A program made the translations under genes and the position numbers. DNA of 64,000 nucleotides from a virus (taxonomy: Duplodnaviria > Heunggongvirae > Uroviricota > Caudoviricetes): the IMG/VR virus record IMGVR_UViG_3300042473_000506. One strand, 5' to 3'. Positions 11,473-30,862 of this stretch are shown piece after piece. The notes under the pieces are model-generated. The model had not been told where the DNA came from and searched no databases. It saw only the letters and a program-made list of their open reading frames with translations. Numbering within the stretch: position 1 is the first letter of the stretch; each line of letters opens with the position of its first letter.

Positions 11473-11501
11473 ATTTTACACGATTGTACGGAAATAGTCA
11501 A
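11473..11501 (-). promoter_or_regulatory. candidate sigma70-type promoter TTGACT-N17-TAAAAT inside the 3' end of the UXS gene
   Basis: Minus strand 'aTTGACTatttccgtacaatcgtgTAAAATatac'; would transcribe the AbrB-like small ORF and the 216-aa gene. Confidence 0.35.
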
Positions 11502-12411
11502 TGGTTCTAACAAGTCCTTGTTCCAAATTGATTTTAGGTTCCCAATCGAGCATAGACTTTGCTACTGAAATATCCGGACGACGTTGCTTTGGATCGTCTT
11601 GAGGCAAAGGCATTTGAAGGATTTGGCTCTTGCTTCCGGTAAGTTCAATAACTTTATGTGCTAATTCCCACATGGTAAACTCTCCTGGATTGCCAGTATT
11701 GACAGGCCCGATAAAATTATCGTCGGTGTGGTTCATCATTGCCTGCATAGCATCCAAAAGATCATCAACATAGCAGAAACTACGAGTTTGCATACCATCA
11801 CCGTAGATAGTAATGTCTTTGCCTTGTAGTGCTTGAACGATGAAATTACTAACTACTCTGCCATCATTTTGAGCCATTCTTGGGCCATAAGTGTTGAAAA
11901 TACGAACAATTTTGGCCTTAACATCGTGAGTACGGTAGTAGTCCATAAACAGTGTTTCTGCGGCACGTTTACCCTCATCGTAGCAACTACGGATACCAAT
12001 TGGATTTACATTGCCCCAATATGATTCCGGTTGTGGATGTACAGTTGGGTCACCGTAGCATTCACTGGTACTTGCCTGTAGAATCTTAGCACCAGTACGT
12101 TTGGCCAAACCTAGCATATTGTAGGCACCTAGCACACTGGTTTTCATTGTTTGGATAGGATCCCATTGATAATAATATGGACTTGCAGGGCAAGCCAAAT
12201 TATAAATCTCATCAACTTCTACATATAATGGAAAGCAAACATCTTGTCGGATGACTTCAAAATTCTTGTTATCTAATAAATGAGCAATATTGTTTTTGCT
12301 ACCTGTAAAATAATTGTCCACACAAAGAACATGGTGTCCTTCGTTGACAAGCCGATCACATAAATGTGAACCTAAAAATCCTGCGCCGCCTGTTACTAAT
12401 ACTTTTTTCAT
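11476..12411 (-). CDS. UDP-glucuronate decarboxylase (UDP-xylose synthase), SDR family
   Basis: '[18 protein letters not shown]', '[61 protein letters not shown]...YDEGKRAAE' is near-identical in pattern to UXS1. Confidence 0.8.
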
Positions 12412-12890
12412 TTGTTTCCTTTAATTAAATTAGGTGAGTACTGTGGCAATACATTACTAACTTCTGTTTCTTTTTTATTTTCTAGTTTAACGGTTCTATC
12501 TCTAAGTTCGCTAGAACTATAAACATGTTCTCTTTTATGATAGTGTAATTCTATACCGTTGTCAATACACCATTGCTTGCCTGTAAAATCTCTATTTAGA
12601 TATTCGTCACTGAGAAACCGAATATGAATAGTCTGTGTCTTAAGTAATTGTAACAGATCGAATTCGGTTTCGTATATTAAAATTTCATCCACATATTTGC
12701 AGGCCTGTAATTGCACATATCTTTCATAGGCACTTTGAACAGGTTTATTTTTAACTCCAGGTCTATCTATTGAAGGATCAATTTGAAGTGCAACAACAAG
12801 ATAATCGCATAACTGTTTCTCCATTTTAAGCATGGTTACATGACCTGCATGTAACAGATCAAAACTACTACAGTTAAATCCTATCTTCAT
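12408..12890 (-). CDS. cytidylyltransferase, second paralogue
   Basis: 'FDLLHAGH' HxGH motif, 'VDEILIY' block; 4-nt overlap with UXS start (operon). Confidence 0.6.
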
Positions 12891-13176
12891 TCTGCGTCCT
12901 TTGGCGCTACAATTCCATATTGTTCATACATCCATTTAATAAATCTTTCAATTTCTTTACTTGGGTATGGATACGCTTTGTATGCTATGGTTACTCTTTC
13001 TAACCAATCTTTATCTGTCATGTTAGTTCCAGTGCCTTAATACACCTGCTACTATAAAGCAGTTTGTTATTATGTATGATAGCACAATAAATGTGCGAAA
13101 GCAAGCAATTAGATCTGATTCCGAATCTGTATTGCCTGCTTTTTCTCCAAGGGCCTTAGCCCATAGTCTCCAAATG

Positions 13177-13683
13177 TTACGCAAATAGGTCTTCATTCCA
13201 TTCACGATGTCCTTCACGGAACGCCATATTGGCCTGTGTTTCGCGTACTTCCACACGATAGCACCAAAGTCTTGCCGCTTCGCCCGGTCCCCACATCTCT
13301 GGAATGTAAACGCCGTTGACATATTTGTAGAGCATGTCACTTAATGCTTCACAACCGAGTGCTGGTAGAATGACAATCTTAGCCATGTTCTTTTCTTGTA
13401 GCATTTTGAATACTTCCATTTGAGGATCGTCTTGTGCAACAATTAAAGTATGATCGAATTGATCCTCTAATGTTTTCTTTAGTTCTTTTAAACCACCATA
13501 GTCAGCCGCCCAATTGCGGACATCTAGGTCGTTGGTGCCAAAGTAGAATTTCATGCTAAATGAATAGCCGTGAATTAGATTACAATGACTATCACTGCGC
13601 CATTGGCGGTATGCACAGGGAAATGCATCGTGATATTCTTTTGTGCTTGTGTACTTGTATAGTACGGGTTGTAGATTTGCCAT
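13177..13683 (-). CDS. queD: 6-carboxytetrahydropterin synthase / PTPS family (QueD-like)
   Basis: 'SHCNLIHGYSF' corresponds to the QueD/PTPS Cys-x-x-x-His-Gly-His zinc/catalytic motif; ~170 aa. Confidence 0.65.
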   Translation of the reverse strand: MANLQPVLYKYTSTKEYHDAFPCAYRQWRSDSHCNLIHGYSFSMKFYFGTNDLDVRNWAADYGGLKELKKTLEDQFDHTLIVAQDDPQMEVFKMLQEKNMAKIVILPALGCEALSDMLYKYVNGVYIPEMWGPGEAARLWCYRVEVRETQANMAFREGHREWNEDLFA

Positions 13684-13783
13684 CTCTAGTCTCCTTTGTA
13701 AGGTAGCAAGTTTGACGACATGCAGAGTTTATAAAGCGGGATGAATGTGCGTGAAAGTCCGCTGCCTACTATTTATTATAGGC

Positions 13784-14368
13784 TTATCGACGTGAAACAA
13801 TTTTGTCGCAAAGACCATAAGCCAGTGCTTCATCTGCGCTCATAAATGTATCTCGATCCATATCACGCTCAAAATCGGCATAGCTTTTACCGGCGGTATT
13901 GTGTTCAACATACAATTTGGTTAACATGGTTTTCATTTGTGTGATTTCTTTGTATTGAATTTCAATATCACTCTGCATACCACGAGCACCACCACTAGGC
14001 TGATGAATCATGTGACGAGCATGTGGCAACATAAAACGTTTACCTGGATGTCCTGCCTGTGCTAGGAAACTACCCATTGAACAAGCCTGACCCATAACAT
14101 AGGTACACACATTTGGTTTGACAAACTGCATAACGTCATAGATAGCCATGCCACTTGTAATTACACCGCCTGGACTATTAATGTAAAAGTGAATATCCTT
14201 TTCGCTGTCTGAACTTTCCAAATGTAGGATCTGTGCTACAATTAGATTACTACTGTGATCATCGACTGGTCCATTCAAGAACACAATACGCTCATTAAGC
14301 AAGCGGCTAAAAATATCAAAGGCTCTTTCGCCTTGTCCGGTCTTCTCGACCACCATTGGTACTAACAT
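13784..14368 (-). CDS. clpP: ATP-dependent Clp protease proteolytic subunit ClpP
   Basis: '[17 protein letters not shown]', catalytic 'GQACSMGSF' (Ser), 'MIHQPSGG' (His) blocks. Confidence 0.9.
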
Positions 14369-14793
14369 TATTTGTATGCCTTATCAAGTGTTGTATTAGT
14401 CAGGCCAGCAATGACCTGGAAATTGTCCCACGCTTTTTTCACTGCGGGATTGCGATCTAGTTCTTCACTAGGTAAAACTGTTTCGAGCCATATTTCTGAT
14501 CGACGAGCAGGATGTCTGCCAAACTTGCGAGGTTGGTGCAGTTTTCCATCTTCCCACAACATGATGCTGACACTACGGAACTTGTCCTCGTCGTCTTTAT
14601 TGTTAAAGTCATAGTGACTCCACTCGGCATGGCTTGCACCTCCGAGGCAGTAGCCTTCCCAGATACCTGACCATTGTAGGTCATCTCGCGGGTCAAAATC
14701 TGTACGAGTAATTACTACCAGTACATCTTCTATGTCTACACGTTCTTCAACAATATCAAGAACGCAACGACTGTAACTTAGACCGACTTTCAT
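14368..14793 (-). CDS. hypothetical protein
   Basis: ORF with ATGA-type overlap to clpP. Confidence 0.4.
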
Positions 14794-14999
14794 TCTTTAA
14801 CTCCGAAATATTGTTTCATGTACCACCCTACAGATACACTAGGATCGTATTGCTCGTATCCCTGTTCTTTCAATTCACCAATCTGAGCACATTTGCAAAT
14901 AATCAATTCGGCAAACTTTTCGGCGTGTTCGATGCCCATCCATTTACCGCTCGTATCAGTTCCAGCCTGTTTCATAAGTGTTTCAATTTGTTCTCTCAT
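14790..14999 (-). CDS. hypothetical protein
   Basis: ORF in overlapping operon run. Confidence 0.3.
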   Translation of the reverse strand: MREQIETLMKQAGTDTSGKWMGIEHAEKFAELIICKCAQIGELKEQGYEQYDPSVSVGWYMKQYFGVKE

Positions 15000-15421
15000 T
15001 CTTTAAATCTTTCTGCATAACGGGCATCTGATTCTGCCCTGTGTGTAGGACACAATGTTTTAATCCAACCTTTACCACCTGCTGTGCCAGGAGCACCGCA
15101 AGTTTCACAACTCTTGTCAGCCCATGCTTCTGCCATACGTACCATACCACTAATTTGATCGTCGCCACCTTGATAGTAGAACCGCAATCCGCCAAACTTT
15201 TCTTTGATCTGTTCTACTACTACCTGTTCAATAACAGGGCGAGTTTCGCGGTTCTTATTCCACCAGTCAGTGTGGCTTTGGATATTGGCACATAGGCTTT
15301 CGATAATAGGCCACCATCCTTCACCTACAGCAAACCCACCGTAGGATTGTGAGAACATCTTTGGATACTTCTCTTCCATGCTTTTGGCAAATGCTTCGTA
15401 CTTGTCTATATCACGATTCAT
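14996..15421 (-). CDS. hypothetical Cys-containing protein
   Basis: ORF; 'CETCGAPG...C' cluster. Confidence 0.35.
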   Translation of the reverse strand: MNRDIDKYEAFAKSMEEKYPKMFSQSYGGFAVGEGWWPIIESLCANIQSHTDWWNKNRETRPVIEQVVVEQIKEKFGGLRFYYQGGDDQISGMVRMAEAWADKSCETCGAPGTAGGKGWIKTLCPTHRAESDARYAERFKE

Positions 15422-15656
15422 TTTCTTTATCCTGTTCGTAGGCTTTTACCATTCGATATAACGGTTCCATGCGTTCAGAAAATACATCGGGGCAATTTTC
15501 AGCAGCTCGTTTCATATCCCACGCACTGGGATAATGTCTAAGACAATACCTAGCATTATCCTTAATGGCTTTAGGAACTCGAGGAGTATTAAGAATTTCT
15601 ACTAAAAACTCTTGAGTCCTTACTACTGCTCGATATCTTTCATCAGGTAATGTCAC
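15411..15656 (-). CDS. hypothetical protein
   Basis: ORF. Confidence 0.3.
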   Translation of the reverse strand: MTLPDERYRAVVRTQEFLVEILNTPRVPKAIKDNARYCLRHYPSAWDMKRAAENCPDVFSERMEPLYRMVKAYEQDKENES

Positions 15657-18382: not shown

Positions 18383-18413
18383 TTTGTGCTCCTTGCTGTT
18401 TCAGTATAGTTAT

Positions 18414-18442: not shown

Positions 18443-18717
18443 GAGTCGGTAATACCAGTTTTGTCCAAATATTCCGAGTATTTCAACAGGAACATAGTAC
18501 GCTTTGGCTCGTTGTAAAAGTCCAAATAGATTGACTCTTTTAGATACTTATGTCCAAAATCTGGATCCATCTTCCATACCCTGTGGGTTCTGCTAGTAAA
18601 ACCTAAAACCGATTTCATCTTATTTCGAATTAGTAATACACTAGGCGGGTAATCCTGAGCTATTTGATTATAGATTTTAAGCCATTGTGCCTCGGACAAC
18701 ACTATAGATCTGCTCAT
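18439..18717 (-). CDS. hypothetical protein
   Basis: ORF. Confidence 0.3.
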   Translation of the reverse strand: MSRSIVLSEAQWLKIYNQIAQDYPPSVLLIRNKMKSVLGFTSRTHRVWKMDPDFGHKYLKESIYLDFYNEPKRTMFLLKYSEYLDKTGITDS

Positions 18718-19256
18718 TAGAACTCATTATTTTGATCCACGACTATCCAACCAAGTCGTTTTAGGTCTTCTTGAATTTCGGCAGTGACAACACTTTCCGG
18801 AACATACCCGTTTGGGAAGGCTATGTTTATTTTTGGATCATAATTGTTGTCGTTTCGAATGCCACTACAATACCAATCGATGTAGTCTCCTTCTTGTAGC
18901 ATATCTGCCACAATTCCACCAGCACGTCTCCAAGAAGCGCCCCAAGTTTGATTCTTGAGAATGGGCATAACGTCTAACTTTTGGAAGTCATTGTTGCAGA
19001 TTGCGGCGTAGAGATTTTGAGCATATACATCACTTGTCCGTACCTTTTCCAAAATCCATTCAGTACTACGGAGATCGTACTCCATGTTATCCTTTTGCCA
19101 TTCTGGATCAACCATATTTTCTTCATCCTGTTGTCGTGCAGATTTGTAAAGATTAAGGTAATCTTCACTCGGCACTTTACCTTCTTCTTCACAGCGTTTT
19201 ATATACCCTTCGGCTTGAAAAGTATGTCGTTCAGGACTGCTTGAAACTTTAGTCAT
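18717..19256 (-). CDS. hypothetical protein
   Basis: ORF. Confidence 0.4.
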   Translation of the reverse strand: MTKVSSSPERHTFQAEGYIKRCEEEGKVPSEDYLNLYKSARQQDEENMVDPEWQKDNMEYDLRSTEWILEKVRTSDVYAQNLYAAICNNDFQKLDVMPILKNQTWGASWRRAGGIVADMLQEGDYIDWYCSGIRNDNNYDPKINIAFPNGYVPESVVTAEIQEDLKRLGWIVVDQNNEF

Positions 19257-19507
19257 TGCAGATTTCGTTTGTCAGCTTCACCGAAGTCCTCGGCAAACAT
19301 GCGGAGTTCTTCATCGCTAAGTTCATCAATAGGGACTGCTTTGTCGAACAATTCTCCACTTTGGATCAGTTGTCCAATTTCAGCCATCAACTCATCGAGC
19401 TCTTCCTGGGAACCTTCAAAGCTGTCGAAACAGCCAGGTGCAAATACAACTTTGAGCTCTTTGCGCTCTTCTGGAGTCATATCTTGAGGAGTTTTCTTTT
19501 CAGTCAT
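19253..19507 (-). CDS. small acidic hypothetical protein
   Basis: ORF, Glu/Asp-rich. Confidence 0.3.
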   Translation of the reverse strand: MTEKKTPQDMTPEERKELKVVFAPGCFDSFEGSQEELDELMAEIGQLIQSGELFDKAVPIDELSDEELRMFAEDFGEADKRNLQ

Positions 19508-19638
19508 TATTTTCTTTCGGAGTTAAGGGTCGATTGTTACAATAAAAACATTCACGGTCGTTACAAATATCTTCTAACCATTCATTGCAGGTTTCGCAAT
19601 AGTGAGCATCATACTCTTTCGAGTACGATTTTATGCAA

Positions 19639-20511
19639 TCAAGTCCACAGGCCATGACGCACCTTGATAAGACGGATCATCATTTCTTCATCTTCGGCTT
19701 CGTATGCCTGCTCAATTTCGTGAGTCTTCATAAGAGCAGCATCGCCTAAGGCACGAGTTTCTGGATTAGCACTTTCTTTCATAAAGCTAAGTCCAGTCTC
19801 GCCGTGTTCTTTGCGCTTGAGTTCACAGTACTCACTCCACCCGCCGGCATCGTGTGCGTCAGGACGGTTTGGATAAACATCTTTCCACCAACGATATAGG
19901 TCAAGAACTTCCTGTGCCTTAACAGCCTGCGGAGTTGGCTTACCAATATTTGGATCACCTTCGGCCCAGCCACTATCTGTATCGTGGCGGAGACTTCGTT
20001 GCCAATCCAGATTGTCGAGTCCAGCTTGTGGACAACGCCAGGTTCTCCAACGGAACCAACCAGTTGCCCAGAATGGGGGATTATACTTAACACTGTCTGC
20101 CTTATCTGCCCAAGCAATTTGCCACCAAGCTAATTCGACTTCAACAAAGTCGACCAGCTCATTAAAAAGACAAGGAAGGAAACGATTACCAACATCACAC
20201 CACTGACCGGGTTTAATGTCTTTAGGGTGTGCAGTGAGACTATGAGTACGAGTAACCCACCGGTTATTAACATAATACTTGATATCATAAATCTTCCTAA
20301 CGGGCCAAGTGACAAAGTCTTGGAGGTGGCCGAGTGCTTCTTCCGCTAGCCAGTAACGGAAATTGTGTTTCATTTGAGCCGCAGTTGTCCAGTCGTCCCA
20401 TTGTTCAGCTGTACCGGCACTAAGTTTCTTAGTACCACGAAGCCAATCTGCAAAAGGACTGCAACTCCAATATTTCGAGTGTTGTGCCATTTTAGTCTTT
20501 CTTTTCGCCAA
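19639..20511 (-). CDS. hypothetical Trp-rich protein
   Basis: 290-aa ORF. Confidence 0.4.
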   Translation of the reverse strand: MAKRKTKMAQHSKYWSCSPFADWLRGTKKLSAGTAEQWDDWTTAAQMKHNFRYWLAEEALGHLQDFVTWPVRKIYDIKYYVNNRWVTRTHSLTAHPKDIKPGQWCDVGNRFLPCLFNELVDFVEVELAWWQIAWADKADSVKYNPPFWATGWFRWRTWRCPQAGLDNLDWQRSLRHDTDSGWAEGDPNIGKPTPQAVKAQEVLDLYRWWKDVYPNRPDAHDAGGWSEYCELKRKEHGETGLSFMKESANPETRALGDAALMKTHEIEQAYEAEDEEMMIRLIKVRHGLWT

Positions 20512-21178
20512 ACAGTTGTAGTAGGCTTAGGAACAAGTTAATAAAATTCAAATACAAGCTCAGTGCTCCGCGAATTTCGGCAACACCATCATTTTCCATT
20601 GATACCTCTTCACGAATACGCTGTGTGTCGTAGGCAGTTAATCCAAGGAACACTAGAATAGCAATGGCCGAAATGACCATTTGAAATACTGTGCTACCAA
20701 CAAAAATATTGATAACGCTGGCAATAATAATGGCAATCAATCCAATTAACAATAGTGATCCAAATCCACTAAGATCCTTTTTAGTAAAGTACCCGTATCC
20801 ACTCATAACACCAAATAGGATCGCACCTCCCATAAAGGCCGATACAATACTGCCCATGTTGTACACCACAAAAATTGTAGCAAAACTAAGCCCCATGAGT
20901 GCTGAAAATATATACAAAAATATCTGTGAGCCCGTTTTACTAAACTTTTCACTGGCTACACTAAATGCCAAAATCAGTAAAAGAGGTGCAAAAATTACTA
21001 TCCATTTCATAATACCAGTGAAGAAAAAGGCCATCAATGCTGCATTAGCACTGACCTGATAGCTAGTAAACATTGAAATCAATACCGCAATTGCCATGTG
21101 CCCATAGACCCGACCCATTGCAGAATTGATCTGCTCTGCGTTTCTATAGACACTATTTTCATAAGTTGTCGAATACAT
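20492..21178 (-). CDS. Bax-inhibitor-1 / YccA (TMBIM) family membrane protein
   Basis: ~7 predicted TM helices, N-terminal 'NAEQINSAMGRVYGHMAIAVLIS' like the YccA/BI-1 start, size 228 aa. Confidence 0.5.
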   Translation of the reverse strand: MYSTTYENSVYRNAEQINSAMGRVYGHMAIAVLISMFTSYQVSANAALMAFFFTGIMKWIVIFAPLLLILAFSVASEKFSKTGSQIFLYIFSALMGLSFATIFVVYNMGSIVSAFMGGAILFGVMSGYGYFTKKDLSGFGSLLLIGLIAIIIASVINIFVGSTVFQMVISAIAILVFLGLTAYDTQRIREEVSMENDGVAEIRGALSLYLNFINLFLSLLQLFGEKKD

Positions 21179-21835: not shown

Positions 21836-21892
21836 ATTTGGTCCTTTTGTTTTTTATTTTTTCTATTTTGAGCAGCTAGTCTCATTTTTTCT

Positions 21893-22726
21893 TTAGTTTC
21901 GTCGGAATGTGTTTGTCATATATTCCTTGTTGTAAATTAAATTTTTAATACTTTGAGATCTACTCTTAGAACTCTTTTCCCCTAACACTGCTACTGCAAA
22001 CATAGTATCATTGTGCTTGACCAACATTACTAAGCATCTACCTGCTTTGCTGGTAAAGCCAGTTTTACTAATCAACACATTATAGTTTGTAATATCAGGA
22101 TTAGTGTTTCTTACCTGTAATGTTACAGTCTTGTTCCTGTTATTGTCAAACTCTACTTTCTCATTTTCAGCCGATGAAATCTGTGTGATTAGCGTGTATC
22201 TACGCAACCACCATACAAAATTTACTAGATCATTAGCTGTACTAACATTTCCGGCGCCTATACCACTAGCATCTTCAATACGAGTATTTTTTAGACCGAT
22301 GTCGCTTATATGTTCATTGACATAGTTTATAAAGGCAGCGTAGCCACCAGGATGAGCATGTGCTAAACTGTCAGCGGCCCGATTATCGCTGGCGATCAGC
22401 ATGGCCTTGATAAGTTCTATTCGGAGAACCTTGGTCTTATTTGGAAATCGTCCTGTTGTAGATCCTTTGACAACGATTGATTCGTTGAGATCAACTCCAC
22501 TGTCAATTACTGCCATTGCTGTAAATAGTTTAGTAACACTGGCAATTGGTACTACTTGATCTTCTCTAACCGCAGCCTCCATTACTGCATCGGTAAAATT
22601 ATATAGTGCGGCAGTTGTGGCACCTGCGTTTAGAGAGCAGAACAGAAGAAGGATAGTTAGGATTTTCATACATTTATTTAACTTGTCCCCAACGAAGATA
22701 AAACTCGGATAACTTCTTTGCTTCAA
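21893..22726 (-). CDS. secreted D-alanyl-D-alanine carboxypeptidase (peptidase S11 / class-A PBP fold)
   Basis: Signal peptide 'MKILTILLLFCSLNAGA'; SxxK 'SVTK', 'SDN' and 'KTG' motifs in order. Confidence 0.7.
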   Translation of the reverse strand: MKQRSYPSFIFVGDKLNKCMKILTILLLFCSLNAGATTAALYNFTDAVMEAAVREDQVVPIASVTKLFTAMAVIDSGVDLNESIVVKGSTTGRFPNKTKVLRIELIKAMLIASDNRAADSLAHAHPGGYAAFINYVNEHISDIGLKNTRIEDASGIGAGNVSTANDLVNFVWWLRRYTLITQISSAENEKVEFDNNRNKTVTLQVRNTNPDITNYNVLISKTGFTSKAGRCLVMLVKHNDTMFAVAVLGEKSSKSRSQSIKNLIYNKEYMTNTFRRN

Positions 22727-23911: not shown

Positions 23912-24643
23912 TTATTTAGGAACACTTAAATTGTAATTGAAGTGAAAGATTCCAATATGAGCTGTTTCACGACTCAACTCTTGATCACACCAGATCTCGT
24001 AACCTGCTTTTTGTGCCTGTTGACAGAAGAAGATATCTTCACCGATTTCCAAATTAAGTTCTGGAATAAACTCTTGCAAGTAATGAGGCTGTGGGATTTT
24101 TTCATATACTTCACGCTTGCAAAGTACTAGACCGTGTGGTAGAACATCGATCAGTTCCATTGCTGGACTATTATCTGTAGTTTGGAATTCACGGAAGTTT
24201 CCGCTAGATCCAACCATACCTGTGAAGTTTGCATTAGGGAAACGACGACGACGATAGTTAGCACCCACAATGTCTTTGTTCCGCTTGAGTAAACGAATAG
24301 GAGCATCGATTGGGAATTTCATGTCACTGTCAACCCACCAGATATAATCAAAGTCACTCTTTAAGAAGATGTCAACTAGGTTACGACGAGCAATAGTAAT
24401 AACACTACCGATATTAAATGCACAATTAATCTTAATACCGTGTGCTACTAGATTAGCAGCCGACATAGCAAGATGTTGTGCAAACTCTGCATTGACCATT
24501 TCCATTGCTGGAACAGCAATCATAATTGATGGCGGTTTACCTCCTGGCTGCGTTGGCATCGCAGTGGTAGTTGGTGCTGTCGGAGCTGCCGGGCGAGCCA
24601 AGTTAGTCGGGCGGCTTGGAATGTTTAATTTACCTTTTTTCAT
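23912..24643 (-). CDS. putative GT-A fold glycosyltransferase
   Basis: 'IMIAVP' Rossmann start and 'WWVDSDMKF' DxD-like motif. Confidence 0.4.
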   Translation of the reverse strand: MKKGKLNIPSRPTNLARPAAPTAPTTTAMPTQPGGKPPSIMIAVPAMEMVNAEFAQHLAMSAANLVAHGIKINCAFNIGSVITIARRNLVDIFLKSDFDYIWWVDSDMKFPIDAPIRLLKRNKDIVGANYRRRRFPNANFTGMVGSSGNFREFQTTDNSPAMELIDVLPHGLVLCKREVYEKIPQPHYLQEFIPELNLEIGEDIFFCQQAQKAGYEIWCDQELSRETAHIGIFHFNYNLSVPK

Positions 24644-24655
24644 TTTTATCCTTAA

Positions 24656-25354
24656 TTATCTAGGTGCGAACTCTTGTTGTAATTTGATGTTATCAAAAAA
24701 TTCTTTCTTTGTAGCTGGATCATCTCTAAATGATCCTTTGAGCACAGTTGTTTGAGTTAATGAACTATGCGCCATGATGCCACGATTCTCACAGCACCCG
24801 TGTACTGCTTGAATGTAGACTGCTACGTTTTCTGAGGCAGTAGCTTTACTAATTTCTCGGGCAATGTCGTTGCAAAGTTCCTCCTGGAGAGTCCCGCGAC
24901 GAGCACACCACTGAGCAATACGAGTGTACTTGCTAAGACCAATAAGTTTTTCTGCGGCGATGATGCCAATGTAAGCGACACCGCTAACGGGCTGATGATG
25001 ATGACTGCACATAGAGCGCAACTCACTACGTACCACCAGCATACCTTCGTATCGGTCTTCTGAATCGTTTGGAAATGCTGTTGCGTCTGGTGCTGCTTCA
25101 TATCTTCCTGCCATTATTTCATTGTAGTACATCTTGGCCAGTCTACGTGCTGTGCCTTTGCTGTTGGGGTCGGTTTCACGATCGATCAACAGTGAATCTA
25201 ACACTTTTTCAAAGGCCTCTGTTGCTTCGTCAATAAGTTCAGGCATAACATTGTTGTCGACATAGTCGCTGATGTTGTCGCCTGCCCAGAAGCGTTTGTT
25301 ATCTTGTTTCATTCGATCGCGGATAACTTGCGATAGATTTTTACTTGTATCCAT
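24656..25354 (-). CDS. folE: GTP cyclohydrolase I (FolE)
   Basis: 'TARRLAKMY', 'SMCSHHHQPVSGVAYIGI', 'LSKYTRIAQWCARR', 'QAVHGCCENRG' match FolE catalytic blocks. Confidence 0.85.
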   Translation of the reverse strand: MDTSKNLSQVIRDRMKQDNKRFWAGDNISDYVDNNVMPELIDEATEAFEKVLDSLLIDRETDPNSKGTARRLAKMYYNEIMAGRYEAAPDATAFPNDSEDRYEGMLVVRSELRSMCSHHHQPVSGVAYIGIIAAEKLIGLSKYTRIAQWCARRGTLQEELCNDIAREISKATASENVAVYIQAVHGCCENRGIMAHSSLTQTTVLKGSFRDDPATKKEFFDNIKLQQEFAPR

Positions 25355-25392
25355 TTATTCTCCGAGTTATTGTCGTGGATGACTTGTATATT

Positions 25393-25421
25393 ATAATACA
25401 TTATTATTTAGGTTCAGTCAA
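25393..25421 (-). promoter_or_regulatory. candidate sigma70-type promoter TTGACT-N17-TATTAT upstream of folE
   Basis: Minus strand 'cTTGACTgaacctaaataataatgTATTATaatatac'; overlaps the 3' end of the UGDH-like gene. Confidence 0.35.
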
Positions 25422-26237
25422 GCGTAGTATTAGATTTTTCTTAACTGCGGAGTCCAAAACATTCATTTGCACACCTTGTTGTTCTGCGTATTTTAATAGA
25501 GCAGAAGTATCTTTTGGAAAGCACATACCGCCAAATCCGAACTCGCCGTCGGGTCCTGGCACCTTCATATGACTATTGCCAATACGACTATCCATTGTAA
25601 TCATACTGGCAATCTTATTATAATCTTGCCCTGTTTTAGTAGCAAGGGCATATAACTCATTCATAAACGTAACCTTAGTCGATAGGAATGAATTGATAGC
25701 ATATTTGCTCAGTGCGGCTTCTTGGATAGTGCAATGCTGTACCTGTTCTAATGCAGTTTGCCCAAGCCGAATAATGCGTTCTGCATCACGCTGATATGCA
25801 CCTACGCTACCGCCGATAATGGCAAACTTGCCATTTATATAATCTCTCTCAGCATTGGCAGCAGTTAGAAACTCCGGAGCATGAACTAGATTAGGGTACT
25901 GATCATTTAGAGTTTGGTACACACTAGGTGGTGCAGTACACTTACTGATAATAACGCCTTTGTAATCTTTAAGTTTTTCTAAGACGTACTCTAATATACT
26001 GGCATCGCATTTGCCATCGTCTCCCATTGGAGTAGGTACGCAGACAAACACGCCTTCGCAGTCGGCGAGATCTTTAAATGTGTGTGAACCTTTTGTTGTA
26101 TCTTTATCAACTAGTATAAGGTCAGTTGAGATTTCCATTGATCTAGCAATGGCACTGCCCACAAATCCTAGGCCCACAATGCCTATTTTTGGGTTATTTG
26201 AAAAAGGGAAATTCATAATATATGTATTTAATGTCAT
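25404..26237 (-). CDS. UDP-glucose/GDP-mannose dehydrogenase family protein, short form (UGDH-like)
   Basis: 'KIGIVGLGFVGSAIA' NAD-binding loop and catalytic-Cys motif 'GFGGMCFPKD'; only ~43 aa follow the catalytic Cys. Confidence 0.7.
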   Translation of the reverse strand: MTLNTYIMNFPFSNNPKIGIVGLGFVGSAIARSMEISTDLILVDKDTTKGSHTFKDLADCEGVFVCVPTPMGDDGKCDASILEYVLEKLKDYKGVIISKCTAPPSVYQTLNDQYPNLVHAPEFLTAANAERDYINGKFAIIGGSVGAYQRDAERIIRLGQTALEQVQHCTIQEAALSKYAINSFLSTKVTFMNELYALATKTGQDYNKIASMITMDSRIGNSHMKVPGPDGEFGFGGMCFPKDTSALLKYAEQQGVQMNVLDSAVKKNLILRLTEPK

Positions 26238-26461: not shown

Positions 26462-26492
26462 ACTGCTAGTATAGCAGTATTAACATTGCATG

Positions 26493-27227
26493 TCAACGGT
26501 CTATCCAGTCTTTATTACGGTAAGGTTTACCAATGGCTGCTTGCGGTAGATATCGAACTACTTTCTTTTTTAATCGTTGAATAATGGGATGGTTGTGATC
26601 GTGTTGGAATGCTCTTAAATACATTCTCCAACTGTTGTGACGTCGTCTGATGCCTTTTTGGTTTTCACTTAGGTAGTCGACGATTTGGTCCACATCACCT
26701 TTAAATTTGTCTATTAATTCACAAGCGATATTGAATCCGTATGCATCTATTTCATCGGAACAGCCCAAATAACTCTGCTCCATTTGCACTTCTGTTTTGT
26801 TTGCAGTGCTGGCATAATCTGGAATAATTTTAAATTTACGCCTACGATACTGCCTCATGTGTATCAATTCGTGTAGTAGGGTGTCTGCTACTGTATAACA
26901 CATTCCCTTGTAGCGTTTTTTAGTTATGCATATATGCTCGTCAAACAACGAATAAACAAATATTATCTCTACAGCCTTCTTTTTATCTTGGTCCCACTCA
27001 CTATAATATGTTCCGCCCACCCAAACTTGATTGGATTCTACTTTAAAATTAGTACTTCGTTTAAACCTAACTGGCGCTAATTTTTTTAAATGATTGGTAA
27101 TTTTGCTGTGGAATTTTTCTATAGTAAGCTGTTGCCCGACTAATTCCGGATAAAGAGAGTACAGGAAACTGGCGATAGTTTCTCGATCTAGCATAGACCA
27201 ATTGAATCGTACTCTTGGTGTAGTCAT
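26493..27227 (-). CDS. hypothetical HExxH metallopeptidase-like protein
   Basis: 'LLHELIHMRQY' zinc-binding-like motif. Confidence 0.35.
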   Translation of the reverse strand: MTTPRVRFNWSMLDRETIASFLYSLYPELVGQQLTIEKFHSKITNHLKKLAPVRFKRSTNFKVESNQVWVGGTYYSEWDQDKKKAVEIIFVYSLFDEHICITKKRYKGMCYTVADTLLHELIHMRQYRRRKFKIIPDYASTANKTEVQMEQSYLGCSDEIDAYGFNIACELIDKFKGDVDQIVDYLSENQKGIRRRHNSWRMYLRAFQHDHNHPIIQRLKKKVVRYLPQAAIGKPYRNKDWIDR

Positions 27228-27247
27228 GTTTCCACCTTGTAATATAT

Positions 27248-27781
27248 TTAGTTATCACTTACACTTTCATTATGTGCTACTTTAATGACGCTAAGACCAC
27301 TCTTCTCTAAAAATTCTACGCCCGCCATGTCCCTATAACTATTGCGATAGTATACGCTAGATATGCCGCTTTGGTATATAAGTTTGGCACAATCCAAACA
27401 AGGAGCGTGAGTAATAAAAATATCAGCATCACGGCCGCTTTGGCTCGACTTGGCCAGCTTCGCAATCGCATTGGATTCAGCATGTAATACCTCTGGTTTA
27501 GTTTTTAATCCGTAACGAACATTTCGTTGAGCACCTTCGTGCCATCCTTCGTGCGGGTACTTAGCATCGAACTCCTCTGGGTCAAGCCAACCACCTGCAC
27601 CCGAATCCCAAACTTTATCTTCACAGTCATTATCCCAGCCCGCAGGCATTCCGTTGTAGCCGTAGCTAATAACTGAACCATCTTTAACAATAACCGCACC
27701 TACCTGAAGTCTAATGGCGTGGCTAAGTTCAGCAGCTCTTAAAGCCCAATCCATATACATGTCTATGTATTTTTCTTTCAT
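27248..27781 (-). CDS. deoxycytidylate (dCMP) deaminase
   Basis: 'HAESNAIAK...' and 'THAPCLDCAKLIYQSGISSVYY' = H-A-E...P-C-x-x-C zinc deaminase signature. Confidence 0.75.
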   Translation of the reverse strand: MKEKYIDMYMDWALRAAELSHAIRLQVGAVIVKDGSVISYGYNGMPAGWDNDCEDKVWDSGAGGWLDPEEFDAKYPHEGWHEGAQRNVRYGLKTKPEVLHAESNAIAKLAKSSQSGRDADIFITHAPCLDCAKLIYQSGISSVYYRNSYRDMAGVEFLEKSGLSVIKVAHNESVSDN

Positions 27782-28533
27782 TGATAATCTCTGCCGTCTC
27801 TAGAGTGGTACTTTTTATCGGGATCATAGTGGGCAAATTGATCATAATTTGGTTCGTTTGGTAACACTCTTTTACCTACGAACCACTCGCCTATGTGATT
27901 AATTAGTTTTCTTCCATAATAATTTCTAATATTCGCAGACACCATGCCGTACTGTTCGTGTAGTACTTTACCTACAAGCCCTTCATTTAAATTAAAATCG
28001 TAGAATTTTCTATAGTCCACCTTAACCCTATCTAATGAATATAAACTTGCCATGGGACTAAAAATCAAGCTATTTTTTGTATAACGAAAATTCTTATAGA
28101 TATGATCTGATCTGTCAGCAATCGGATCCGTTTCGTGACCGTACCATGCTTGTCTTGCTAACTGAACCTGTCCCAATTCTTGATCTTTTTGCAATAGCTC
28201 TATAAGGTCGGTGACTAGTACAGGTTCTAGTATTTCTACGTCATCTTCTTGGTGCCATATGTAGTCATAATCTCTTTCTTTCATTAGGTCCCAGAATTGA
28301 CTCCATGTTACACTCAACCCTAGATTTTCTGGATGCAAAATAATTTCATTATAGCCGTACAACTTAACCAGCTCTGTGATCATCAAATCGTTTCGAGTTT
28401 TAGGATAATCATCGATGAAAATTTTATGTACTTCGCATCCGTAATAATTTATATTACGCTGTGCTCTTAGTGTACGAGTCAAGTACTCTAGTCTGTTAGT
28501 TGAAAATATTACCTGACAAATTTTATAGGTCAT
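27778..28533 (-). CDS. putative glycosyltransferase (GT-A-like)
   Basis: 'KIFIDDYP', 'HQEDDVE' DxD-like features. Confidence 0.4.
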   Translation of the reverse strand: MTYKICQVIFSTNRLEYLTRTLRAQRNINYYGCEVHKIFIDDYPKTRNDLMITELVKLYGYNEIILHPENLGLSVTWSQFWDLMKERDYDYIWHQEDDVEILEPVLVTDLIELLQKDQELGQVQLARQAWYGHETDPIADRSDHIYKNFRYTKNSLIFSPMASLYSLDRVKVDYRKFYDFNLNEGLVGKVLHEQYGMVSANIRNYYGRKLINHIGEWFVGKRVLPNEPNYDQFAHYDPDKKYHSRDGRDYQ

Positions 28534-29081
28534 TAGATTCTCTCAGTATTAAAGAAGAAAGTTTGGAAAAGTCTGCCAGTTTCGTTGCTGTTACCAAAAT
28601 AATCTAAACTTGCGTGATATAGATCACCTCGATAAATTATTAGCCTGTTGTATTTGTTTCCTACTCTATCAAATTGATCCCATTTAGTATAATCATAACC
28701 TTCGTGGTCTTTGTTAGATCTTCTAAATTCTCCAGTTTCTTTGTGACGATAAAATGCAGTTCCACCTGTATGTGGAGCATCTGGAGTTAGGTAACAAACA
28801 CCTGCCCACATATTATGATGGTCGGCATGTATCCATGTTCTGTCTTGAGCTGTGGCTAATTGAAAGGCTCCGGTGTAACCTTGATCTTCAAACCAGTGAG
28901 TAACCGGCCCTGCAAATGCCATCCAGTATTCGATACAGGATTTAACATCGTCCGGTAGATAAGGTTTAGTTCTTGATCCGGGATAATTTCCTTTTACCGA
29001 GAAGTCTTGAGACAATGCATAATTTCTAACAATGTCTGGGTTCTCATAAAAGTTATCGATAACTAATAATTCTAAATTCAT
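28533..29081 (-). CDS. 2OG-Fe(II) oxygenase (prolyl-hydroxylase-like)
   Basis: 'WIHADHH' (HxD) ... 'RLIIYRGDLYHAS' (distal His, Arg). Confidence 0.55.
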   Translation of the reverse strand: MNLELLVIDNFYENPDIVRNYALSQDFSVKGNYPGSRTKPYLPDDVKSCIEYWMAFAGPVTHWFEDQGYTGAFQLATAQDRTWIHADHHNMWAGVCYLTPDAPHTGGTAFYRHKETGEFRRSNKDHEGYDYTKWDQFDRVGNKYNRLIIYRGDLYHASLDYFGNSNETGRLFQTFFFNTERI

Positions 29082-29843
29082 TTAATACCTCATGTATGTT
29101 CCACTAACTCCTTCCCAGCCATATATTTTCCAGTCAGTTTCTACTATGTCTTTTTCGTAAGGTCTAGTAAAGAAATATAACAAGGTTTCAAGATCATATG
29201 CTATACCATTGGGGTTATTCGTAAATTCTGCAATCACTCTATAGATGTCTAGCATTTTTTCATGATACTCAGAAGTCCATCCATAAAGCACTGAGCAATA
29301 TTGTCTAAGCGTGTTATCTTGCTGGGTACTTCGTCTATCTACCATTTCATAGGGCCAAGTATCCTGCCACTCAAATTTTAACGGATGTTTAAAAAACAAT
29401 TTCCCTGTATTTTCATTTGTACAATGAGTTAGGTTAAACGACCGATCAAAGAAATATCTTCCACTTAATTTAAAAAAGAAGTCATATTCTTTGAGCAAAT
29501 CTTTATATCTATTAAAGAATGCAAGTTGTAATATTGTTTCACAGTGACTCTTGTGAGAGTGTGTTCTAATAATATCAAATAAGTCGGGAAATTCTTCTGC
29601 TACATTAATAAAAACAAGATTTGGTTGGTAGGCAAGTACTGCTTTGTAGTGTGCAGAATTTTTAGATGAGTCAACTAAAAATATAGTTGTTTCGTCGTCT
29701 ATTATTCTATCTAAAGATGATAGAGTAAAAATAGTTTGTCTTAATCGTTCTTCATTACTGAAGATAGATCTTACATTACTGTAGGTAAGTGGATAGGTAT
29801 TATCAACATCAATGACGCTAGTAACCAGTATTGCTTTCTTCAT
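29082..29843 (-). CDS. hypothetical protein (possible nucleotide-sugar transferase)
   Basis: ORF in the GT cluster. Confidence 0.3.
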   Translation of the reverse strand: MKKAILVTSVIDVDNTYPLTYSNVRSIFSNEERLRQTIFTLSSLDRIIDDETTIFLVDSSKNSAHYKAVLAYQPNLVFINVAEEFPDLFDIIRTHSHKSHCETILQLAFFNRYKDLLKEYDFFFKLSGRYFFDRSFNLTHCTNENTGKLFFKHPLKFEWQDTWPYEMVDRRSTQQDNTLRQYCSVLYGWTSEYHEKMLDIYRVIAEFTNNPNGIAYDLETLLYFFTRPYEKDIVETDWKIYGWEGVSGTYMRY

Positions 29844-30862
29844 GATCTATAAAAGTTGCCTGTTAATAATTTTTTAAAATATTCATCGAGTTGTTTATGT
29901 ACAACTTCTTCAGAGTAGTGTTTCATTGCCCAGTCTCGGCAAACTTTGGGGTCTATCTTGTCAATGTTATTCAATGCGTCGACAAATTCTTTAAACTCTC
30001 TACAACGGAATCCAGTTACACCTTGTACAACTGTTTCTGTAAAGCCCCCCCAGTCTGTGGTAATAGCTGGGGTGCCGGAGAAGTAGCCTTCAGCAACCAT
30101 ATTGCCAAAAGGTTCAACGTAGTAAGTCGGTCCTATGATCGCCTTTGCATCTCGCATTAATACTTTACGCTGTTCTGCATTTGCCACACCAAACACTTCT
30201 ACATGACTAGGAATTTCAGAATAACCCATGTCTGCTAGATCTCCGGGACCTGCTACAATCAATTTATGTCCTGTTTCTTTTGTAGCTTGTATAGCAATAT
30301 TAAGACCTTTGTTTTCAATAACTCTACCAAAGTAAAGAATATAATCTTTCTTTGCCTTAGAGAATTCAAACTCGTCTGGTGAAAATGCATTTGGTATAAC
30401 AGCGTCATACCAGCTAGGAGCCATTAACATCTTTCTCTCACCGTAGAACATGTGCATTTGGGCATAGCTGACAAATACTCTATAAGGTGCGAACACTGCC
30501 TTAGTGTCGTAGCCTATGCTAGGTTCGATGATAATAAGATCGTTATTGGCTTCGGCGGCAACTTGATTTTCCCAACCATGAAAGCAAACTATAATATCTC
30601 CGGGAGATTTTCGGGATTTAATTTCACCGGCTGCTCTTATATTGTATTTGTCTATACAAGAATTTCTGTGTGGGTATATCTCATCTAAACAAATTACAGT
30701 TTCACAATCTACTTTACAGCCCACTATACCGTAATGGATACAGTCCCATCCTAGAGGCATCATGTTGTTGATAAATTTTATTACCGCTATAGAAAAGGGA
30801 TCGGTCCTGTTATTAATATGAACAGGACCGGTTGGATTGCTTAATATATGAATTGTAGGCAT
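29840..30862 (-). CDS. GT-B glycosyltransferase family 1 (GT4-like)
   Basis: 'EPFGNMVAEGYFSGTPAITTDWGGFTETV' EX7E-type motif and 'GRVIENKGLNIAIQA' block. Confidence 0.75.
   Translation of the reverse strand: MPTIHILSNPTGPVHINNRTDPFSIAVIKFINNMMPLGWDCIHYGIVGCKVDCETVICLDEIYPHRNSCIDKYNIRAAGEIKSRKSPGDIIVCFHGWENQVAAEANNDLIIIEPSIGYDTKAVFAPYRVFVSYAQMHMFYGERKMLMAPSWYDAVIPNAFSPDEFEFSKAKKDYILYFGRVIENKGLNIAIQATKETGHKLIVAGPGDLADMGYSEIPSHVEVFGVANAEQRKVLMRDAKAIIGPTYYVEPFGNMVAEGYFSGTPAITTDWGGFTETVVQGVTGFRCREFKEFVDALNNIDKIDPKVCRDWAMKHYSEEVVHKQLDEYFKKLLTGNFYRS

Follow-up and report, generated by a model that had tools for sequence, protein, structure and literature searches.

UDP-xylose (UDP-Xyl) is uncommon in bacteria, and the question raised by the stretch of DNA analyzed here is what a phage does with genes that appear to produce it. 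The stretch, referred to in its entirety as the window, comprises 64,000 nucleotides of a tailed virus (Caudoviricetes; IMG/VR record IMGVR_UViG_3300042473_000506). It encodes a UDP-glucuronate decarboxylase (UDP-xylose synthase, UXS), a short protein related to UDP-glucose dehydrogenase (UGDH) and designated sUGDH, two paralogous nucleotidyltransferases (CT1 and CT2), and glycosyltransferases (GTs). An earlier examination of the letters alone, called the sequence-only reading below, had proposed that UGDH and UXS convert UDP-glucose (UDP-Glc) to UDP-Xyl, and this was supported, as far as computation allows, by gene fusions and gene neighbourhood. The open reading frames (ORFs) it named were all located at its coordinates on the minus strand, and each matched its family far beyond chance (Table 1). 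Our overall interpretation, a UDP-Xyl pathway used as a supply of glycosyl donor with virion proteins as the leading acceptor, is given a probability of about 0.45. Sugar toolkits as such have already been described in pelagi- and cyanomyophages; what is new here is the two-domain UGDH.

A two-domain UGDH-like protein with intact catalytic residues

The sUGDH ORF matched the central domain (PF00984, E 1.1e-23) and the N domain (PF03721, E 1.2e-12) of the UGDH family, and no match to the C-terminal UDP-binding domain (PF03720) was obtained in this ORF by Pfam. The motif GFGGMCFPKD at residues 234-243 aligned with the catalytic Cys loop of solved UGDHs. The ORF stops approximately 30 residues past this loop, with FolE beginning 49 nt downstream, and Met8 of the window ORF corresponds to the start of its relatives. 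Only positions 67-293 of the 413 in TIGR03026, the NCBIfam profile for nucleotide-sugar dehydrogenases, were covered. When the AF2 model (pLDDT 86.7) was compared to UGDHs with Foldseek, the TM score was 0.81 relative to the query and 0.54 relative to the target, and such a pair of values (0.81 versus approximately 0.5) is as predicted by the loss of one domain.

Loci of relatives were scanned by exact peptide patterns, and these scans are non-exhaustive. In all 72 viral sUGDH loci examined, the ORF was 243-289 aa long (35-100% identity) and the C-terminal domain was absent, with K99, T101, E122, K178, N182, R218, C239, K242, and D243 invariant. Among 51 nonredundant sequences, K178, N182, C239, K242, and D243 were conserved at 100% and the NAD-site residues G22, G24, G27, and D46 at ≥96%. 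In comparison with canonical UGDHs (P. gingivalis 3GG2, S. pyogenes HasB 1DLI, and the human enzyme), sUGDH shares the NAD and central dimerization folds (Foldseek E 6e-18), the GGxCFPKD Cys loop, and the Lys, Asn, Asp, Thr, and Glu positions, and for both forms there are links upstream to GalU and downstream to either UXS or a 4-epimerase. It differs in lacking the whole of PF03720 (approximately 110-130 aa), in an N domain trimmed between beta2 and beta3, and in a family-specific, invariant insert of 4-7 residues (VPGxDG; H223, V226-P-G, and D230-G) just before the Cys loop.

When 1.84 billion representatives were searched with a profile, 1457 clusters were obtained at E ≤1e-30. The best 120 homologues were 64-96% identical, and 135 of the 150 best representatives (50%-identity clusters) were ≤310 aa in length. 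In a scan of 185,579 species genomes, the matches with ≥35% identity were all 251-304 aa long, except for one ORF of 489 aa (L175), while those with ≤34% identity were mostly canonical and ≥432 aa long. The length comparison with canonical enzymes called for by the sequence-only reading therefore gave 243-304 aa for the sUGDH family against 432-483 aa for canonical homologues, and its short UGDH-like enzyme with a catalytic-Cys motif proved to be a member of a conserved two-domain family whose catalytic residues are intact. Since the short form was also found in streamlined bacteria, namely, in SAR86 (including a complete chromosome), in Woesebacteria, and in other Patescibacteria, it is not virus specific. 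Among NCBIfam models, TuaD (110 bits) and AglM (102 bits) scored far above UDP-ManNAc dehydrogenase (30 bits), all of them below their equivalog cutoffs. Literature searches for truncated UGDHs returned nothing relevant.

Two explanations for the short ORF were rejected. For a split UGDH, tblastn with full-length UGDH found no separately encoded C-terminal domain in the window, the only match being a chance-level one at 2355-2525 (E 0.13) in an ORF without a Pfam family. A pseudogene or assembly artefact was dismissed because the ORF is short at all 72 loci, the catalytic residues are invariant, and FolE follows directly. One sUGDH homologue, P0477, carries a weak match to an intein splicing domain (PF14890, 21 bits versus a cutoff of 35.8) directly after the catalytic-loop region; inteins are usually located in conserved active sites of important genes.

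The UDP-xylose synthase

UXS is a short-chain dehydrogenase/reductase (SDR) of the extended type, matching GDP_Man_Dehyd (E 3e-52) and Epimerase (E 1.7e-48) in Pfam. In a phmmer search of the PDB, residues 2-309 matched human UXS1 (4gll and 2b69) with 402 bits (E 1.7e-119), while the next SDR type, a UDP-hexose 4-epimerase (4zrm), reached only 136 bits. The alignment with human UXS1 is collinear across 308 residues with a single 3-residue gap, and the N-terminal GxxGxxG NAD+ site, the STSE motif, and the catalytic YxxxK (YDEGK) correspond column for column. The assignment made from the letters alone thus withstood both profile and PDB searches. It is as secure as sequence analysis allows, and decarboxylase activity is firmly predicted. 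The NAD, STSE, and YxxxK motifs are likewise common to S. meliloti Uxs. In contrast to the known enzymes, the window UXS is phage encoded, has no N-terminal membrane anchor, and is situated, outside any polysaccharide locus, between a QueD-like gene and UvdE.

UXS orthologues with 74-100% identity were found in at least 80 IMG/VR loci (the best 80 of 158) with fixed synteny, and by this measure UXS is a core gene of the clade. The order in these loci is ClpP, QueD-like, (small ORF), (CT2), UXS, (variable 2-oxoglutarate [2OG] oxygenase or DUF6445 gene), UvdE, He_PIG, and fibres, where parentheses mark genes not always present. CT2 adjoins UXS in 22 of the 80, and UvdE, He_PIG, and the fibre genes are always 1-3 genes away from it in these best 80 loci. 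Among the tblastn matches listed for INPHARED, no isolate carried a UXS more than 52% identical, and the matches closer than this came from metagenome-derived records lacking annotation. The literature searched yielded nothing relevant on phage UXS or virion xylose, save a discussion of a possible Uxs/Uxe route in RB69 (PMC6024577).

Fusions and neighbourhoods linking sUGDH to UDP-sugars

Indirect evidence for the substrate of sUGDH came from proteins in which it is joined to other enzymes. Of the 11 long proteins among the 150 sUGDH representatives, 10 were scanned with Pfam. An N-terminal NTP_transferase domain is joined to sUGDH in P0390 and P0434, and that of P0390 is of the GalU type, scoring 188 bits with 3juj compared to 68 bits with RmlA. 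P0474 is a UXS-sUGDH fusion that translates intact on its contig (L160), and its UXS part is 54% identical to the window UXS over 307 residues. In P0472, sUGDH is joined to an SDR, and in P0368, present on 13 contigs, it is joined to a CT domain that is 47% identical to CT1 and 45% identical to CT2.

The neighbourhoods of more distant homologues gave a similar picture. In pelagimyophage-like loci (sUGDH 43-46% identical), the neighbours are an extended SDR, GT8, methyltransferases, a DegT aminotransferase, a CAP59-type GT, and a CT-cupin fusion. In the Kyanoviridae phage C48C1, sUGDH follows an SDR whose best PDB matches were 5u4q (deposited as dTDP-glucose 4,6-dehydratase), 6zl6 (B. cereus), and MoeE5, the last two of which we take to be UDP-glucuronate (UDP-GlcA) 4-epimerases. 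In SAR86 genomes, a CT-like gene adjoins sUGDH.

Conversion of UDP-Glc to UDP-Xyl was concluded to be the best reading because the fusions (GalU, UXS, and SDR), together with the neighbourhoods in unrelated phages, link sUGDH to UDP-Glc and UDP-GlcA. The reaction most likely catalyzed by sUGDH, as judged from these fusions and neighbourhoods, is the oxidation of UDP-Glc to UDP-GlcA, which we consider a probable assignment. The phage pathway from UDP-Glc through UDP-GlcA to UDP-Xyl is well supported in silico and may be accepted with good, though not full, confidence.

The nucleotidyltransferases

CT1 and CT2 are 48.6% identical. Their scores with RfaE domain II were 62-71 bits (CT1, 71.3; CT2, 61.9) against an equivalog cutoff of 181.5, and those with TagD were 43-47 bits (46.8 and 42.7, respectively) against 165.4, so that neither NCBIfam equivalog threshold was reached and neither protein can be named as a TagD or RfaE equivalog. 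They have PF01467, the HxGH motif, and a C-terminal SSSxLR in common with HldE domain II (heptose-1-P adenylyltransferase) and TagD (glycerol-3-P cytidylyltransferase). In NCBIfam, both matched RfaE domain II best and TagD next. CT2 matched Pcyt2 and TagD in the PDB, and CT1 matched PHROG 7878 (E 5e-29). Orthologues of CT1 with 74-90% identity occupy the same relative position in relatives.

Distant phages have a fusion of the CT domain with a PMI-type cupin, in which the CT takes the place that an NTP_transferase domain has in type II PMI/GMP enzymes. The family thus differs from HldE domain II and TagD in being fused to sUGDH or to a PMI-type cupin where the analogues carry NTP_transferase domains of the GalU or ManC type. 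The CTs were placed in the sUGDH pathway because of the P0368 fusion, the coupling of CT2 to UXS, the adjacency in SAR86, and the CT-cupin fusion. Most likely they activate a sugar 1-phosphate for this pathway rather than producing CDP-glycerol or CDP-ribitol, and this is the weakest of the deduced steps. Of the two HxGH cytidylyltransferases put forward by the sequence-only reading, the family therefore stands (PF01467, with FHAGH and LHAGH), while their use in making an independent CDP-glycerol or CDP-ribitol donor does not agree with the tie to sUGDH seen in fusions and neighbourhoods.

Glycosyltransferases and the variable cassette

At least three GTs, of the GT-A and GT-B types, had been named by the sequence-only reading, and three predicted GTs are supported: a solid GT4, a marginal GT2-like protein, and GTA243, which was assigned by its fold. 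In the GT4 protein, E250-x7-E258 is invariant in 5 homologues. For the GT2-like protein, D41-D42 and E96-D97-D98 are invariant in 4 homologues, and nothing was found by sequence in the PDB.

GTA243 is the most conserved of the set. The best 120 of its 365 homologue clusters were 78-93% identical, none with a Pfam domain, and its D105-S-D107 motif is invariant. It matched PHROG 1574 (E 1e-25) and PHROG 12406, "glycosyltransferase" (E 7.6e-7), and its profile gave STIV A197 in the PDB (E 0.07). The top Foldseek matches of its model were all GT-A proteins (A197, E 1.7e-6; viral GT-A proteins, E 1e-9; TM 0.4-0.55), and tblastn found remote homologues among GT-annotated genes of cyanomyophages and mycobacteriophages.

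The other two GTs belong to a cassette that changes between relatives. The arrangement GT4-o253-DUF6445-GT2 was found in L001, L002, and L006; L158 has GT4-DUF6445-260 aa, L159 has GT4-245 aa with extra GT17 genes upstream, and L003 has no GT cassette. GT4 is the most widely retained cassette gene (L001, L002, L006, L158, and L159), while the GT2-like gene is present in L001, L002, L006, and L158 and absent from L003 and L014. The clade-restricted o253 gave no match in Pfam, NCBIfam, PHROGs, or the PDB (by sequence or profile), and it was not counted as a fourth GT, having no family match in any library searched. The GT17-family genes of L159 (NCBI GCA_013558375.1, a 226-kb contig) are two in number, one of them fused to a methyltransferase, and lie at 1-3929 of L159. 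Upstream of the cassette in L158 there is a GIY-YIG homing endonuclease gene.

Proposed pathway and acceptor

The scheme proposed here, deduced with regard to its substrates, its acceptor, and what the CTs do, builds on family and fold assignments, catalytic-residue conservation, and genomic and fusion linkage obtained in silico. UDP-Glc from the host or the CTs would be oxidized by sUGDH to UDP-GlcA through the usual NAD+-dependent Cys thiohemiacetal/thioester chemistry, and UXS would decarboxylate UDP-GlcA to UDP-Xyl. CT1 and CT2 would stand in functionally for GalU-type enzymes by activating a sugar 1-phosphate. GTA243 would add a conserved first sugar, to be elaborated by the variable cassette (27778-30862), and the acceptor would be virion proteins of the phage itself, such as the collagen-like fibres rich in Gly-Pro-Thr/Ser that are encoded at 3040-8091. 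Virion proteins were preferred because the enzymes are soluble, no transmembrane segment being present in any toolkit protein, because GTA243 is overly conserved for a variable host glycan, and because UXS and the CTs lie beside the fibre module. They are favoured over host envelope glycans, although this choice is tentative and falls short of even odds. The acceptors were ranked in the order of virion proteins, host envelope intermediates, DNA, and a small molecule, with the remaining weight on the question of the substrate.

Several points weigh against this scheme. In canonical UGDHs, as judged from the S. pyogenes and human structures, the C-terminal domain provides much of the UDP-sugar binding, so that activity of sUGDH on UDP-Glc is not guaranteed, and to our knowledge there is no biochemistry for any two-domain UGDH. 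Fusions prove a functional link, neither consecutive steps nor substrate identity, and the UXS-sUGDH fusion is known from one 7.2-kb contig only. There is no GalU in the window, and UDP-Glc must therefore be host or CT derived. Confidence in the model of GTA243 is no more than moderate (pLDDT 67.8). The sequence itself does not point to an acceptor. The gene for sUGDH lies among genes of nucleotide metabolism (dCMP deaminase, FolE, and MazG-like) and not among structural genes, and the candidate promoter of s75-sUGDH, if real, suggests early rather than late expression. Furthermore, the published reading of similar pelagimyophage genes is modification of the host O-chain (PMC7029224).

This last reading represents the strongest alternative, in which the same pathway serves the host envelope (lipopolysaccharide [LPS] O-chain, capsule, or exopolysaccharide intermediates) and the remodelled surface blocks superinfection or the adsorption of progeny to lysed or infected cells. 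It is the usual reading of the "LPS genes" of cyano- and pelagimyophages. In the pelagimyophages, rfaE-like genes, a UDP-glucose 6-dehydrogenase, and GTs occur in or near host-recognition clusters, and O-chain modification was favoured (PMC7029224), while in S-SCSM2R, 13 GTs together with TagD, UGDH, and epimerases were interpreted as serving cell-wall modification (PMC12801897). The variation of the GT cassette between close relatives, as if it were tracking variable host glycans, points in the same direction, as does the possible early promoter in front of sUGDH. Undecaprenyl-linked intermediates can also be substrates of soluble GTs. However, no flippase or polymerase (Wzx, Wzy), ligase, polyprenyl-phosphate GT, or Gtr-type membrane protein was found in the scanned parts of the window, and the 78-93% identity of GTA243 is more in keeping with a constant acceptor than with a variable host glycan. 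Host envelope intermediates were therefore deemed a serious but rather unlikely acceptor. A different doubt concerns the substrate, as sUGDH might oxidize another primary alcohol, either that of a CT-made, ADP- or CDP-linked sugar or that of a sugar already attached to its acceptor, leaving UXS to act on UDP-GlcA of the host. The C-terminal domain is missing from every family member examined, with no separate ORF for it in the window, the invariant insert before the Cys loop implies a remodelled substrate site, and all NCBIfam scores fall below equivalog cutoffs. The sUGDH-CT fusion and the CT adjacency in SAR86 are also consistent with this, as the sugar-activating member of that nucleotidyltransferase family makes ADP-heptose. 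Against it, the GalU-type fusions and the fusion to a UXS orthologue specifically indicate UDP-Glc and UDP-GlcA, the neighbour of sUGDH in C48C1 resembles UDP-GlcA 4-epimerases, and UGDH models scored well above UDP-ManNAc dehydrogenase. Oxidation of another alcohol thus appears improbable.

The two other acceptors were considered less likely still. Sugars could be placed on phage DNA, with the phage's own supply of UDP-GlcA or UDP-Xyl and GTA243 attaching a uronic acid or pentose to a modified base, in a hypermodification resembling T4 glucosyl-hydroxymethylcytosine (hmC) or RB69 arabinosyl-hmC. Consistent with this, the surroundings of sUGDH and GTA243 include dCMP deaminase, FolE, and the MazG-like pyrophosphatase, and in other T4-like phages an SDR-sUGDH pair or cluster lies beside DNA polymerase, primase, UvsX, or gp32. 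The plastic slot between DNA polymerase and UvsX is that of T4 beta-gt and of the putative UDP-arabinose module of RB69, for which a Uxs/Uxe route to the pentose donor was explicitly raised (PMC6024577). The high conservation of GTA243 would also suit a constant acceptor such as DNA. Nevertheless, neither the window nor the 20-kb loci of relatives yielded a hydroxymethylase, DpdA, or any other enzyme that modifies bases, and the window has no second SDR that might act as a UDP-xylose 4-epimerase. T-even DNA glucosyltransferases are of the GT-B type and unrelated to GTA243, and we know of no xylosylated DNA. DNA was accordingly judged very unlikely as the acceptor. On this view, and with any other target as well, the two-domain UGDH would be a nucleotide-sugar dehydrogenase of minimal form, binding its substrate with no canonical UDP-binding domain. 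The product could, finally, be a glycosylated small molecule such as a pterin glycoside. All across the clade, sUGDH, FolE, and GTA243 stay adjacent, the sUGDH-FolE pair persists despite replacement of every other neighbour, and most of the best 80 loci have a QueD-like (PTPS) gene at a distance of 1-3 genes from UXS. Pterin glycosides, one of them containing glucuronate, are known from cyanobacteria. However, adjacency among phage auxiliary genes is weak evidence, in phages FolE and QueD more often belong to the metabolism of 7-deazaguanine or folate, and the sUGDH of distant clades has no FolE neighbour, which leaves the pterin glycoside as the most far-fetched of the products considered.

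Relation to known systems

The closest published counterparts are the "LPS / cell-wall" sets of cyano- and pelagimyophages (P-SSM2, S-SCSM2R, and pelagimyophages; PMC7029224, PMC12801897), which share rfaE/TagD-like genes, UGDH, NDP-sugar SDRs, and several GTs with the window. Like the toolkit described here, they are found within or close to the tail-fibre region, which serves host recognition, in aquatic phages of the T4 superfamily, and homologues of GTA243 are present. The window differs in belonging to another lineage, one of jumbo phages (the closest isolate being PA5oct, at approximately 28-30% identity) and in having a true UXS as a core gene. The RB69 arabinosyl-hmC module (PMC6024577) is similarly a sugar-nucleotide module of a T4-superfamily phage with a nucleotidyltransferase-like component, and its slot between DNA polymerase and UvsX is also occupied by the sUGDH module in related cyano- and pelagimyophages. 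In contrast to RB69, no hydroxymethylase or GT-B DNA glycosyltransferase was found here, and the sugar would be xylose or glucuronate instead of arabinose.

In the virion glycosylation systems of mycobacteriophages, Chlorovirus, and Mimivirus, virus-encoded soluble GTs, accompanied in the giant viruses by nucleotide-sugar enzymes, decorate the virus's own structural proteins. For mycobacteriophages, glycosylation of capsid and tail tube was reportedly described by Freeman in 2023. GTA243 is weakly homologous to GT-annotated mycobacteriophage genes, and its model could be aligned to the GT of Che8 as well as to the GT portion of the collagen-modifying enzyme of Megavirus. Compared with these systems, the toolkit is known from genes alone, and the GTA243 fold matches generic GT-A (TM 0.4-0.55). 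In contrast to Mimivirus hydroxylysine glycosylation, the collagen repeats of the window do not contain the required Lys.

If sUGDH is active on UDP-Glc, the minimal architecture of a well-studied enzyme class would be redefined by a subfamily that is abundant in phages and that has kept every catalytic residue despite the loss of the whole UDP-binding domain. The RfaE-II/TagD-like proteins of aquatic phages, routinely annotated as "rfaE" or "TagD," may be sugar-1-phosphate nucleotidyltransferases. For this abundant clade of freshwater jumbo phages, UDP-Xyl seems to be a core metabolite, and xylose, as a chemical marker for virions, host envelopes, or DNA, could settle what the "LPS genes" of aquatic myophages modify.

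Collagen-like fibres and oxygenase-like proteins

The three collagen-repeat proteins were deduced to be tail-fibre-like because one has an Mtd_N domain and another has a Peptidase_S74 intramolecular chaperone. Their repeats comprise 125 G-X-Y triplets, almost purely GPQ, GPT, GPS, and GVQ, with Pro occupying X in 82 of them and Y in only 9. Position Y is mostly Gln, Thr, or Ser (Thr or Ser in 53/125), and there is no Lys. Since Pro is at X, Gln/Thr/Ser are at Y, and Lys is absent, the fibres offer few canonical sites for prolyl-4-hydroxylase or lysyl hydroxylase, and modification of the Mimivirus hydroxylysine type or by prolyl-4-hydroxylase is disfavoured by this composition.

The gene at 28533-29081 had been described as a prolyl-hydroxylase-like 2OG oxygenase. 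This was not supported: no specific similarity to prolyl-4-hydroxylase was found, DUF6445 was the sole Pfam match, and the triad is a generic HxD...H...R. Its residues H85, D87, H156, and R170 are invariant, also in paralogues of 34-37% identity, which occur beside UXS in 11 relatives, and at the level of the motif the protein is consistent with a 2OG-Fe(II) oxygenase. An hhalign comparison of DUF6445 with the 2OG-FeII_Oxy_5 protein of the window showed no relation, the alignments being too shallow for this to be informative. The latter protein, encoded next to UXS, matched PHROG 81 (E 6e-9), and its slot varies among relatives.

Organization of the window and its relatives

We read the window as an arm of an abundant, uncultured, freshwater T4-superfamily jumbo-phage clade. 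It is 100% identical to the 69.6-kb IMG/VR contig UViG_3300042898_004337, and near relatives were found on metagenome contigs of 200-393 kb. The best matches of rIIA (33733-35910) and of a conserved 406-aa protein were in the PA5oct group (Pseudomonas jumbo phage), at only 28-30% identity, and a megablast search with 11-31 kb against INPHARED gave no isolate.

Every gene at 1-39 kb of the window is on the minus strand. The sugar genes form two conserved core loci and a swappable GT cassette rather than one cluster. The sequence-only reading had given one span, 11476-30862, for the toolkit; a contiguous sugar cluster over this span is not upheld, as unrelated genes lie between the two loci; the dCMP deaminase and FolE genes do lie beside the sugar genes, as it had said. 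In the first locus, CT2 overlaps UXS by 4 nt, and UXS is followed by the 2OG-oxygenase-like gene, UvdE, a gene for a He_PIG protein, and the three fibre genes. CT1, past the fibre genes, makes up a separate third piece. The second is a tightly packed array in the order GT4, o253, DUF6445, GT2-like, dCMP deaminase, HExxH protein, s75, sUGDH, FolE, and GTA243, with successive gaps of -4, 0, -1, -4, 20, 31, -4, 49, and 12 nt, those from GT4 to dCMP deaminase being the first four (-4, 0, -1, and -4 nt). Between the two loci are QueD-like, ClpP, Bax1-I, S11 DD-carboxypeptidase, and MazG-like genes and many ORFs without a family.

Table 1. Features of the window considered in this study
Feature	Coordinates	Strand	Evidence and remarks
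CT1, paralogue of CT2, 154 aa	125..589	-	PF01467 (CTP_transf_like), 38.5 bits (cutoff 21); FHAGH
Three collagen-repeat proteins	3040-8091	-	One with Mtd_N domain, one with Peptidase_S74 intramolecular chaperone
2OG-Fe(II) oxygenase, PF13759-like	10674..11324	-	PF13759, 26.4 bits, just under cutoff of 27; adjoins UXS; link to toolkit uncertain
UXS, UDP-glucuronate decarboxylase (predicted), 311 aa	11476..12411	-	Extended SDR; full-length match to UXS1
CT2, cytidylyltransferase-like nucleotidyltransferase, 160 aa	12408..12890	-	PF01467, 47.7 bits (cutoff 21); LHAGH
GTA243, GT-A-like GT	23912..24643	-	GT-A by fold; core gene, most conserved of set
FolE (GTP cyclohydrolase I)	24656..25354	-	PF01227, E 6e-40; nonsugar gene
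sUGDH, two-domain UGDH-like enzyme	25404..26237	-	NAD and dimerization/catalytic domains; no UDP-binding domain
s75, small conserved ORF, 75 aa	26234..26461	-	Overlaps sUGDH start by 4 nt
Candidate sigma-70-like promoter	26468..26496	-	TTGACA-17-TATACT with upstream TG; in front of s75-sUGDH
HExxH protein, 244 aa	26493-27227	-	H119-E120-x-x-H123 invariant; nonsugar neighbour in array
dCMP deaminase	27248-27781	-	PF00383, E 7.8e-21; nonsugar neighbour in array
GT2-like GT-A GT, 251 aa	27778..28533	-	PF00535, 27.4 bits (cutoff 23.3); marginal
DUF6445 protein, putative 2OG-Fe(II)-oxygenase type, 182 aa	28533..29081	-	PF20043, E 1.9e-17; in cassette
o253, clade-restricted protein	29082..29843	-	104 homologues, none with Pfam domain; in GT cassette
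GT4-family (GT-B) GT, 340 aa	29840..30862	-	PF00534 (Glycos_transf_1), 55.2 bits (cutoff 26.4); PF13692, 51 bits

The genes for sUGDH, UXS, GTA243, FolE, the HExxH protein, and dCMP deaminase form the core across the clade, with their positions kept. FolE is invariably located between sUGDH and GTA243 in the clade, and the sUGDH-FolE adjacency survives where other neighbours differ (L007-L015). The HExxH protein, to which no family was assigned by Pfam or PHROG scans, sits between dCMP deaminase and s75-sUGDH throughout the clade, and the block of HExxH protein and dCMP deaminase (26493..27781) is kept in L003, L014, L158, and L159. In a 393-kb relative, a SegE-like GIY-YIG homing endonuclease gene lies on the opposite strand between sUGDH and FolE (L003 10800-11423; L004 6568-7191). 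In L159, genes for P-II and an ammonium transporter follow downstream of the conserved block (18620-20804).

In the clade, as well as at the more distant loci L044, L050, and L051, the gene immediately upstream of sUGDH is the small ORF s75, while in L115 s75 directly follows UXS. It gave neither a Pfam nor a PHROG match and is possibly a pathway accessory. The promoter candidate in front of s75-sUGDH matches at 11 of 12 positions and is the best site in 22.5-31.7 kb. Since this region contains 34 promoter-like sites compared to 29.1 +/- 5.4 in shuffles, that is, not above expectation, the candidate was treated only as a lead. Promoter and terminator scans gave no excess over shuffles, and the T4 late-promoter motif TATAAATA was not enriched and was absent upstream of the sugar genes. 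The 738 bp between the GT4 start and the SPFH-domain gene (30863-31600) contain no minus-strand ORF of ≥80 aa and gave no Rfam match.

Other observations

The QueD-like protein (13177-13683) has CNLIHGY in place of the QueD motif CxxxHGH, and neither QueE nor DpdA was seen in the window. Several genes of cell physiology are unusual for a phage: Cpn10 (GroES-like, 883-1263), a fragment-sized DNA polymerase III alpha NTPase-domain protein (1544-2098), ClpP (13784-14368), a Bax1-inhibitor/YccA-like membrane protein (20492-21178), an S11 DD-carboxypeptidase (21893-22726), and an SPFH/band-7 protein (31601-32398).

The region at 40000-58000 is a low-GC island (29-35% GC versus 38-50% elsewhere) with genes on both strands. 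It encodes two fatty-acid desaturases, an NMO-like oxidoreductase, a 510-aa radical-SAM protein, two QueC-like PP-loop ATPases, two TctC/Bug-type solute receptors, a Rieske protein, a GNAT protein, and a 2OG oxygenase, and may be a lipid- or metabolite-modifying module. The TctC genes are a hint of a betaproteobacterial host. Beyond the island, at 58676-64000 on the minus strand, there is an array of 18 tRNA genes (Gly x2, Met x2, Pro, Val, Thr x2, Asn, Ala, Leu x3, Ser x2, and Arg x3), which is interrupted by a 500-aa radical-SAM/B12-binding ORF (62063-63565).

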